Shown: piece after piece, positions 42,001 through 45,000 of the stretch
How the letters are laid out: the number at the start of each line of letters is the position of its first letter
How positions within the stretch are numbered: position 1 is the first letter of the stretch
Made by a program: the position numbers
Assembly: GCF_054482525.1 (NCBI RefSeq)
Contig: NZ_CM137006.1
DNA length: 64,000 bases
Direction: 5' to 3' (one strand)

Positions 42001-45000
42001 AAGGTGCAAACGGACAGCGACTTTGCCGATCAGGTCTGGAGCTACTTCGCGACCGGCACCCAGCTGCAGGAGCTGTATATTACCCCGTCCATGCTGAACA
42101 AGGTGAAGTGGGATACGCTGGCGAAGGCTGCAAAATGGTCGAAGGAAAATGCCAGCGTGCTGGTTGATACCCACTGGATTGGCGGCGACCCAACGGCGCT
42201 TGCCGTGTACGGCTGGGCATCCTGGAGCAAAGACAAAGCCATTCTCGGTTTGCGCAACCCATCGGATAAGCCACAGGCCTACTATCTGGATTTGGCTAAG
42301 GATTTCGAAATACCGACAGGAGACGTGGCGCAGTTTAGTCTGAAAGCGGTATACGGCAGCAATAAAACCGTGCCCGTTGAGTATAAAAACGCGACGGTGA
42401 TTACGTTGCAGCCGCTGGAAACGCTGGTGTTTGAGGCGGTGCCCGTTAACTAAACGCTTGTCCCAATGAGCAGACCGGGTAAGGCGCAAGCGCCACCCGG
42501 CAAAACCGGCAGCAGGGGCTTATTCCCCCTGCTGTTCCAGCGCATACTTATACAACGCATTCTTCTTCACTCCGTGGATTTCTGCCGCCAACGCCGCCGC
42601 TTGCTTCAACGGCAGCTCAGCCTACAACAGCGCCAGCGTACGCAGCGCATCGGCGGGCAGTTCGTCATCCTGGGCTTTATGGCCTTCAATAATCAGCACC
42701 ATCTCGCCTTTGCGAGGGTTTTCATCTTCTTTGATCCACGCCAGCAGTTCGCCGACCGACGTGCCGTGGATGGTTCCCAGGCGGGTGTTCATCACATAAC
42801 GGTATAGGGCATCATTCAGCGGAGCCATTAACAGGCAGCACGCGTCAACCCAGTTGGAGAGTAACGCCGTCATTGGGTTATTTCTTTCCATAAAAATACG
42901 CAAACATGCCCCATACCTCCTGTTCCAACAGCTCAACCTTTCTTAATCATTGCCGAAATTGCGCCACAGTCATGAAACTTATCAAAACCAGTGGTGCCTT
43001 TGATATATTCAGTAACCAGAGTACCAATAATCTTAACCGTTTCTTTGTTCGTTGTGATAAAGCCCAGTGGCATCGTTACAGGCAATATTTCGGGTTGAGA
43101 AATATGATAGATAACGGCAGATAACTCATCCTCAAGATGAAGGATCTCAACATTACCATCTAACAGCCCCTCAACTAGTCCTTTAGCGTACTCATGGAAT
43201 TGCCCAAGTTCATACTTCCACTGTCTGGCAACCCGAGCATCAGCTGCATCCCGGACAGGTACGTACAGCACCGGTTTATACAGCTGCTTATCCTTCGTAG
43301 CCGACTTGCTAAGAAAATTGCTCAGGCTTGAGATAAATCGAATGCTTTTTGACCAGTAGGGATCTGATGGTGCCACCCAGATGAACGGGCTACCTCCATA
43401 ATCAGTTTTATCTCTGATACGCTGATTGAGCGCTGGTGCCAGAGCTTTCTGCAGCTTTTCCCAGTTGTTTTTAGAATAAACCGGACCTAAAAAAGTCGTT
43501 CTGCCTGAGGACGAGTATTCTTCCAGTGCTTGCATATCTTTGATAAACAACGGATTAAGTCGATTCGTTTTAGAGTCAAACAGCTTAAGCGTAAGGTCAT
43601 CGTTAATGGATTGCATGGCCTTAAAAATACTCATGGTATTGTTATGCCGTGATAACCTGGCTATCTCAACAGCCATTAACTCATGAACACATTCCGAACT
43701 ATTTAACTGTTCATAGTCTTCACGCTCGACAGCCTTACCATCGCTATCCATTTTAAATTCCGTTGTTAAACGGAGTGGTATTTGCCGCAGCTTATTAACA
43801 GAATTAACGGTATAGATAGAAGGTTGTTCTTTTCCGACCTGAACCTGCAGGTGAGACAGGTAACCTTTATCCAGGATTTGATTAAACTGGTATTGAAAGT
43901 GCTTCTCAACCAGTTTCTCACTTTGAGAAATGTTGTTGTCATCAACCTTTAATGTTACCCCTCCCCTCCAGTGGTCCTGAAAAGCCTGGTTGCTGAAGCA
44001 ACTAAATGTGGCTAAATCAAAGGATAAGGTACAGCCACTGTCCTGAATAGTTGAAAGATGCGGTATCTCGCCAACCTCTGAAAAATAGCCATTTGATTTG
44101 TCTGTTAAGGCCAGTCTGCCGTCTGAGGAGAGCGTCAATTCGCCACGCTGCACAAGATCGGAAATCGCCTCCTCTGTCTCACGGTGGGTCAGGCCGAAAT
44201 AGGTTGCTATTTGTGCTTTGCTCATCGAAGCTACATGAACAAGTCTCAGCACAAACTCCCGGATAAATGGCAGCCCCTTCTGGGAAACATAGGAAAACTG
44301 AATGTTAAACCTCTGTGCTGGCAGCAGGAAGTCAACCTCATGATAGGTAACTTTGTTATCAGATATCATTTCTTTTTGCCTCCCTGCTGAGCAGAGAGGA
44401 ACCTGTATCCAGCTTCCTGACCTCGCTCAGCCATATAACTTACAACGTAGCCTAATGGCAATTCTTTATTGTTTCCCTTCCAGATATCGGCATTACCCAC
44501 AATCAACAGTCGATCCATTGCGCGTGACATCGCGACATTTATACGGTTTGGAACGCGTAAGAAACCTGGGCTATGCTGCTTATCCGAACGCGTCAGTGAC
44601 AGGATAATGATCCGATTTTCCTTTCCCTGATAACTGTCAACAGTGTCAATTTTAACAATGTCCTTAAATCCCTCGCTCCAGATTTCCTGATTGAATTTCT
44701 GACGGAGTAACCGCTTTTGTTCGGCATACATACATATCACGCCGATAGCGGCTTCATCTTTGCTAACAAGTTTTGAAAGCTTAGCGACAAATTCTTCATT
44801 CTCTGACACCTGTTTAAGAACAGAAATAATCTCGTCAGCTTCACATCGGTTGTAAATGCTTGTTCCGCGATCTTCAAGATGATGTGCTCGGTGGCCCTGA
44901 TTAGCAGTATCAAGCCAGGTTACAACGCTACGTAACGCTTCCGGAGCTTGCTGATAGACATCCGGAATTGCCCGTACTCCATTCAGAAGCTTCCCGTCAT

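Follow-up and report, generated by a model that had tools for sequence, protein, structure and literature searches.

An rsmI fragment with an in-frame amber codon, very probably a decaying Enterobacter-like remnant inside a tRNA-Ser island of Escherichia coli

Is a truncated copy of rsmI at the edge of a defence module the damaged gene of the cell itself, or a piece of somebody else's chromosome? The question is raised by contig NZ_CM137006.1 of the RefSeq assembly GCF_054482525.1, of which we analysed one stretch of 64,000 nucleotides (hereafter, the window; all positions count from its first letter). There, the 3' end of rsmI (yraL), a gene whose product is labelled 16S rRNA C1402 (cytidine-1402) 2'-O-methyltransferase, carries an in-frame TAG and lies close to a gene for a 478-aa protein. 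The first-pass annotation of the window saw in this arrangement the left boundary of a segment resembling P4 or a phage-inducible chromosomal island (PICI), abutting core DNA far from its tRNA-Ser attachment site and therefore implying a rearrangement. Our analysis leads elsewhere: the fragment, denoted rsmI' below, is very probably a non-functional remnant of a foreign, Enterobacter-like chromosome residing inside a tRNA-Ser island. The features needed for the argument are the following.

42454..42519, no strand: spacer between rsmI' and a convergent gene for a 637-aa glycoside hydrolase (GH) or 'enterotoxin', with a GC-rich palindrome; it lies inside the Enterobacter match at 37421-42781.
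42520..42781, minus strand: rsmI' pseudogene fragment, codons ~204 to stop, defined by alignments (ungapped to 42775, with a 1-bp gap to 42781).
42622..42624, minus strand: in-frame TAG in place of Gln254 (CAG), defined by ortholog alignment.

The minus-strand translation of 42939..42520 ends in the C-terminal residues of RsmI. When aligned with the full-length gene of E. coli O157:H7 (861 nt), rsmI' matches without gaps over nt 609-861, corresponding to positions 42775-42523, and a single 1-bp gap carries the alignment on to nt 602 at 42781; the reading frame is intact along the whole alignment (BLAST E = 3e-80 against native E. coli rsmI), and the fragment's own stop codon occupies 42520-42522. 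What survives is the last ~84 codons (~29%). The first-pass annotation was right in reading the gene as reduced to its 3' end, though the loss is larger than the 5' half it had assumed, since the first ~203 codons, or ~70% of the gene, are absent. The alignment also places the TAG within the rsmI frame, as had been claimed, with the frame running on to the RsmI C-terminus. At the affected codon, 254, E. coli O157 and 7/7 other orthologs read have CAG (Gln), so that the amber codon amounts to a single C-to-T change.

A one-base difference from CAG might be put down to faulty sequencing or assembly of a frame that is otherwise open. We regard this as next to impossible: 318 records reproduce the 61 bp centred on the TAG at 100% identity, the remaining 201 fall in the 95-99% identity band with one mismatch in those sampled, and the one-mismatch genomes examined (W224N and EcPF5) retain the TAG and differ elsewhere in the 61 bp. 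Moreover, the annotation pipeline PGAP labels 42520-42774 in co-linear genomes as '16S rRNA methyltransferase; internal stop; missing N-terminus', noting the internal stop in strains SLK172, 2313, W224N, AH62 and EcPF5, and the frame would lack its first ~203 codons regardless. Through this annotation rsmI' is already known as a pseudogene; the feature exists but is ordinary, an old fragment annotated as a pseudogene next to an insertion sequence (IS) scar.

Could it nevertheless be the cell's own rsmI, truncated by the island or in the course of a rearrangement, with the island abutting core DNA far from its tRNA-Ser site? The fragment is undeniably derived from rsmI, and garD, agaR, kbaY and rsmI stand in the window in the left-to-right order that they have in the E. 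coli K-12 core. Still, we give this possibility almost no weight. The identity of rsmI' to the resident E. coli gene is only 85-86.5% by BLAST, whereas native copies across 5424 genomes are mostly at least 95% identical to each other. At the native locus the order is yraI-yraJ-(fimbrial pseudogene)-rsmI-lpoA, with no GH gene beside rsmI, while the stretch ending in rsmI' shows co-linearity with Enterobacter chromosomes. Strains co-linear with the window have the entire segment at a great distance from lpoA, flanked by serX and phoH, and in AH62 island genes extend leftwards as far as serX. The first 600 nt of native rsmI, absent from rsmI', are present in 5424/5426 complete E. coli genomes at 90% identity or more and in a median of one place per genome; none of the five annotated co-linear genomes showed them next to the island copy. 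Given this near-universal 5' part, and given that 517 genomes contain a match to the 61-mer around the TAG of the island copy, essentially all carriers of rsmI' should also hold a native rsmI. By these sequence comparisons, rsmI' is not the cell's own rsmI. A false lead is thereby removed: the cell has in all probability not lost rsmI, and there is no chromosomal rearrangement to invoke.

Set against a functional RsmI, rsmI' shows the homology, its last ~84 codons aligning in frame with E. coli and ten other enterobacterial loci. It differs in lacking a complete ~286-aa frame with the N-terminal methyltransferase part, in bearing the premature stop at codon 254, in carrying changes at otherwise invariant residues and in being 14-15% diverged from the resident gene. 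It also sits away from the core site divergent from lpoA, its neighbours being the GH gene on one side and, on the other, a scar of an IS66-family element followed by mkoB, the gene for the 478-aa protein.

Where, then, does rsmI' come from? A search with the 637-aa GH protein through the GTDB species representatives, one genome for each species, returned 62 loci. In Enterobacter, Lelliottia, Kosakonia, Yokenella, Raoultella, Klebsiella, Pluralibacter and Buttiauxella the GH gene adjoins rsmI, which there is convergent with it, full length (286 aa aligned) and followed by lpoA; the distance from the GH gene to the rsmI 3' end is ~40-90 bp in most loci and 0.5-1.7 kb in several. The order malX-malY-GH-rsmI is the same as in the window in E. 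cloacae, E. quasihormaechei and E. hormaechei, with proteins 91-95% identical. At the nucleotide level, window positions 37421-42778/42781 form a single co-linear 5.36-kb high-scoring segment pair (HSP), at ~86% identity, with chromosomes of the Enterobacter cloacae complex (loci L007, L008 and L043), and this HSP stops at 42778-42781, where the IS66 fragment starts. What had been taken for core DNA abutted by the island is therefore an Enterobacter cloacae-complex match rather than E. coli core. The block and its probable left part are:

34952..37091, strand not assigned: garD' (5'-truncated, frameshifted) and agaR, from the PGAP annotation of co-linear genomes.
37421..42781, plus strand: captured block kbaY' (3' end)-malX-malY-637-aa GH/'enterotoxin'-rsmI', defined by single BLAST HSPs and by protein identity and order.

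The garD'-agaR pair probably represents the left part of the same captured block. In loci L050, L032 and L039, too, the GH gene has agaR upstream of it. Between agaR and the kbaY 3' end, the greater part of the aga operon has been lost, to an extent that differs among island variants.

A block from a divergent Escherichia lineage, instead of an Enterobacter-like genus, would account for rsmI' being about equally near to the rsmI of Enterobacter (82-85%) and that of E. coli (85-86.5%). We find such an origin very unlikely. In the species-representative scan a GH gene beside native rsmI occurs only in other genera; the co-linearity of malX-malY-GH-rsmI and the best protein identities (91-95%) both lie with the E. 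cloacae complex; and the C-terminus of rsmI', 'EQQGE*', is of the Enterobacter type, E. coli having 'EQQG*'. The sole near-identical matches are two contigs of metagenome-assembled genomes (MAGs), L006 and L067, labelled Collinsella sp. and Lachnospiraceae bacterium, which are 100% identical to the E. coli island segment itself; this identity probably reflects binning contamination.

Some further observations concern the GH gene (40540-42453, plus strand), which PGAP labels 'enterotoxin' or 'alpha-galactosidase' and which is kept beside rsmI in many Enterobacteriaceae. A Pfam search of its product returned no family, and relatives at 31-47% identity occur in MAGs of Verrucomicrobiota, Planctomycetota and Gemmatimonadota. 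Between the window and W224N variants the gene differs by 8.0%, and the flanking malY and rsmI' by only 2.7% (window 39375-42774 vs positions 2922-6321 of W224N locus L003), which suggests that the block has recombined internally.

The right end of the Enterobacter-like block is marked by the junction between rsmI' and the IS66 scar. In a sensitive BLAST search of positions 42454-42940 against the 5426 complete E. coli genomes, the query splits in two: its bases 70-328 match native rsmI at 85-86.5%, and bases 328-415 match tnpC of the IS66 family. The rsmI homology thus ends at ~42775-42781, where the tnpC piece starts, which is ~160 bp to the left of the junction at ~42937 proposed in the first-pass annotation. 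The change of sequence origin on the other side, together with a drop in GC content from ~57% to ~41%, falls near 42868-42870. Two features fill the interval.

42781..42867, minus strand: internal fragment of IS66-family tnpC, 87 bp, without IS ends, defined by BLAST; PGAP calls it a frameshifted or incomplete hypothetical protein or an IS66 family transposase pseudogene.
42868..42932, no strand: 65-bp spacer, defined by the GC shift and by the parting of window-type and W224N-type islands from 42868 onwards.

The 87-bp piece is 91-93% identical by BLAST to ISEc43/ISEc23, elements of the IS66 family, and the match (local BLAST position 42781-42867) falls inside the tnpC gene, as checked in one ISEc43 copy. 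Unlike those elements, the piece in the window has no terminal inverted repeats, tnpA or tnpB, and consists of tnpC interior only; it is a scar rather than an element. PGAP treats both scraps, rsmI' and the IS66 fragment (IS66'), as pseudogenes in every co-linear genome opened (five annotated). Positions 42903-42940 give a weak match (38 bp) to the inside of a plasmid-borne IS4-family transposase gene; it does not agree with the IS4-family fragment found beyond the IS66 scar of the enteropathogenic E. coli (EPEC) strain E2348/69 and may be due to chance.

How old is this junction? Together with the TAG, it is common to three island configurations. In the window type, the rsmI' end is followed by 87 bp of IS66 and then mkoB. 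In the W224N/EcPF5 type, it is followed by 117 bp of IS66 and then the gene for Gp2, and the Mokosh module, to which mkoB belongs, is absent. In EPEC E2348/69, rsmI' is also cut on its 3' side, at window position 42618, and the IS66 scar leads into the IS4-family fragment. Both the W224N/EcPF5 type and E2348/69 differ from the window type on both sides of the junction. Taking the three configurations with the 517 genomes matched by the 61-mer, the junction and the TAG are an old scar, neither a read error nor a recent rearrangement. A simple insertion of the Mokosh module into a W224N-type arrangement is ruled out by 103 bp of W224N that are missing from the window, 33 of them extra IS66; on the other side stand 8.45 kb of the window that are missing from W224N, so neither configuration derives simply from the other. 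Probably, a common ancestor with a longer IS66 piece underwent independent later deletions.

The substitutions in rsmI' tell a similar story of decay. Where all ten orthologs agree, rsmI' departs from them by AP to TS, V to I, RR to PR, V to I, K to Q and Q to stop. Between the window and W224N copies of rsmI' there are 1 synonymous and 6 non-synonymous codon changes, compared with 102:42 in the adjacent intact GH gene. Such a pattern points to drift or relaxed selection, and we infer that rsmI' has no function. That the remnant is kept for some function (as a terminator or repetitive extragenic palindromic (REP) element for the convergent malX-malY-GH operon, as a 104-aa open reading frame (ORF), or as an anchor for antisense action on native rsmI or recombination with it) might seem to follow from its persistence, with the junction, in several hundred genomes, from the GC-rich palindrome in 42454-42519 and from the existence of the 104-aa ORF itself (42936-42622, TTG start). 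We hold this to be very unlikely, as the remnant's linkage to neighbouring genes explains its persistence and E2348/69 does without its 3' part up to 42618. A scan of 42300-43200 gave no sigma-70-like promoter, the chimeric ORF has no Pfam domain, and the changes that separate island lineages are mostly non-synonymous (1:6). As for recombination with the native gene, 85% identity over 260 bp makes a poor substrate for homologous recombination.

What surrounds the Enterobacter-like block shows that it is island cargo. Positions 1-21000 and 33000-57900 of the window are co-linear with strain AH62. In AH62 the island starts at the tRNA-Ser gene serX, 4.5 kb to the left of the equivalent of window position 1, and its integrase end lies next to phoH; strain 2313 has a similar layout. 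Leftwards of rsmI' the island runs on with hypT, aspartate racemase, dcuA, type I restriction-modification, Ag43 and antirestriction genes. Since island genes continue left to serX in AH62, rsmI' is in the island interior and no rearrangement against core DNA is needed. The boundary recognized in the first-pass annotation is indeed a seam between differently derived segments, but it is not the left limit of the P4/PICI-like island, which extends further left: rsmI' marks a seam between two cargo modules, one being the Mokosh/P4-like part and the other the sugar-utilisation block. At the right end of the island, we find the following.

58184..59386, minus strand: tyrosine integrase, island right end, defined as an ORF and from the PGAP annotation of co-linear loci.
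59547..59784, plus strand: two direct copies of a tRNA-Ser 3' end with terminators, attachment-site (att) remnants beside clpA, defined from sequence.

The 14-mer CCCCCTCACCGCCA occurs at 59547-59560 and again at 59727-59740, each copy being followed by a downstream terminator, with an RtT-like element between them that scores 41.3 bits, below the Rfam gathering score of 45. Neither ARAGORN nor a search for the T-arm pattern of tRNA-Ser detected an intact tRNA within the window. On the right the island is flanked by clpA-clpS-cspD, which by the K-12 gene order is the serW locus. Thus the ~63-kb island (window 1-59400), found at serX-phoH in AH62 and 2313, borders clpA, at the serW locus, on the right of the window; either it uses both tRNA-Ser paralog sites or it has recombined between them.

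This brings to mind the Shigella resistance locus (SRL) pathogenicity island (SRL PAI), for which insertion at serX/serW with 14-bp repeats has been described (PMC7545054) and whose gene order includes integrase, YfjI, Gp2, a LysR-type regulator, aspartate racemase and DcuA (PMC6980539 Table 2). Our island shares with the SRL PAI and related serX/serW islands the tRNA-Ser site (serX in AH62) and the tRNA 3'-end repeats (the two 14-mers by the integrase and clpA). When the PGAP annotation of co-linear genomes is set beside the published gene table, its backbone order of integrase, YfjI/DUF3987, Gp2, LysR-like regulator, aspartate racemase and DcuA also appears to correspond. It differs in having ~24 kb of other cargo between the Gp2 and LysR genes, namely the Mokosh system, the Enterobacter-like block and a ribokinase/fucP block, and neither the multi-resistance SRL region nor fec genes are among the annotated features of the co-linear stretches. 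Among the papers found on the SRL PAI and serX islands, none mentions an rsmI/yraL remnant.

We infer the following order of events. A donor chromosome segment of ~5.4-7.9 kb (garD'-agaR-kbaY'-malX-malY-GH-rsmI') would have become cargo of a serX/serW tRNA-Ser island with an SRL PAI-like backbone. Its right end would have been cut inside rsmI at ~codon 203, in association with an IS66-family element of which 87 bp of tnpC were left. The leftover 3' piece of rsmI, free of selection, may then have acquired the CAG-to-TAG change and the substitutions at positions invariant in functional RsmI. Later deletions and insertions on the IS66 side would have produced the differing right-hand neighbours, in the window the Mokosh genes mkoB-mkoA.

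Several points weigh against this scenario. The 62 species-representative loci include no donor above ~86% nt identity (for the GH protein, 92% aa), so 'Enterobacter-like' is meant as an approximate designation only. The presence of native rsmI in the window's own genome is deduced from 5424/5426 other genomes, and the synonymous to non-synonymous count in rsmI' comes from just 7 differences, a small sample. Finally, the junction between rsmI' and tnpC lies inside tnpC and not at an IS end; simple IS66 insertion alone cannot account for the cut, and the mechanism we suggest for it is conjectural. Even with these points counted, we remain confident in the foreign remnant as the explanation of rsmI'.

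It is tempting to go one step further and suppose that the shared rsmI'-IS66' junction stems from a single inter-genus capture, in which an IS66 element in the Enterobacter-like donor mobilised ~8 kb of core genome (garD' to rsmI') into the cargo region of a P4-like/SRL-type island, beside the present site of the Mokosh cassette. We offer this tentatively, and would give it slightly less than an even chance; if it is true, such cargo regions collect foreign core-genome blocks for sugar utilisation as well as defence genes. Expression of the chimeric 104-aa ORF, IS66'-rsmI', is less likely still. Independently of the manner of capture, the locus offers a clean example of a composite island carrying decaying core-genome pieces of another genus, bounded by IS scars, and the conserved rsmI'-IS66' junction could serve to mark a lineage of this island family.

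The neighbour of rsmI' beyond the scar deserves a comment of its own.

42933..44369, minus strand: mkoB, 478 aa, Mokosh type I (PADLOC MkoB E = 1.9e-151; no Pfam family).
44366..50631, minus strand: mkoA, split by an IS in the window (PADLOC MkoA 2206 bits; the end at 50631 is computed from AH62 coordinates).

The 478-aa gene had been described as beginning at the junction; it is its stop codon (42933-42935), hence its end, that lies there. The genes mkoA and mkoB are adjacent, as in the anti-phage system Mokosh type I, and the PADLOC profiles of MkoB and MkoA are matched over almost their full length by the proteins of 478 aa and 1652 aa, respectively. In MkoA, Pfam finds NERD, a kinase domain (Pkinase) and the helicase domains AAA_11 and AAA_12. 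The difference from an intact system is that mkoA, uninterrupted in AH62 (1652 aa), is broken in the window by an IS3-family element of 1310 bp (47683-48992), and for this reason the Mokosh system of the window is probably inactive. Towards rsmI' its role is that of a neighbour only. The IS3-family element carries an ALIL frameshift pseudoknot, and in strain 2313 mkoA is interrupted at another position. Between mkoA and the Gp2 gene, at ~50816-51151 (minus strand), there is a frameshifted fragment of a TOTE conflict-system primase, so labelled by PGAP in co-linear genomes.

A few minor observations from elsewhere in the window may be added. Two CRISPR-DR4 repeats (RF01317) at 59783-59810 and 59843-59870 (minus strand), between the att remnants and clpA, have the look of an orphan mini-array; the window contains no cas genes. 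At 28624-28691 (minus strand), near an IS200 copy, a weak tRNA hit by Rfam (30.7 bits against a gathering score of 29), without an ARAGORN call, could be a degraded tRNA or an att remnant of an older module boundary. Close by, at 27861-28205 (minus strand), Rfam matches to the small RNAs STnc490 and STnc100 lie beside an ORF that in strain 2313 is a frameshifted IS200/IS605 transposase.

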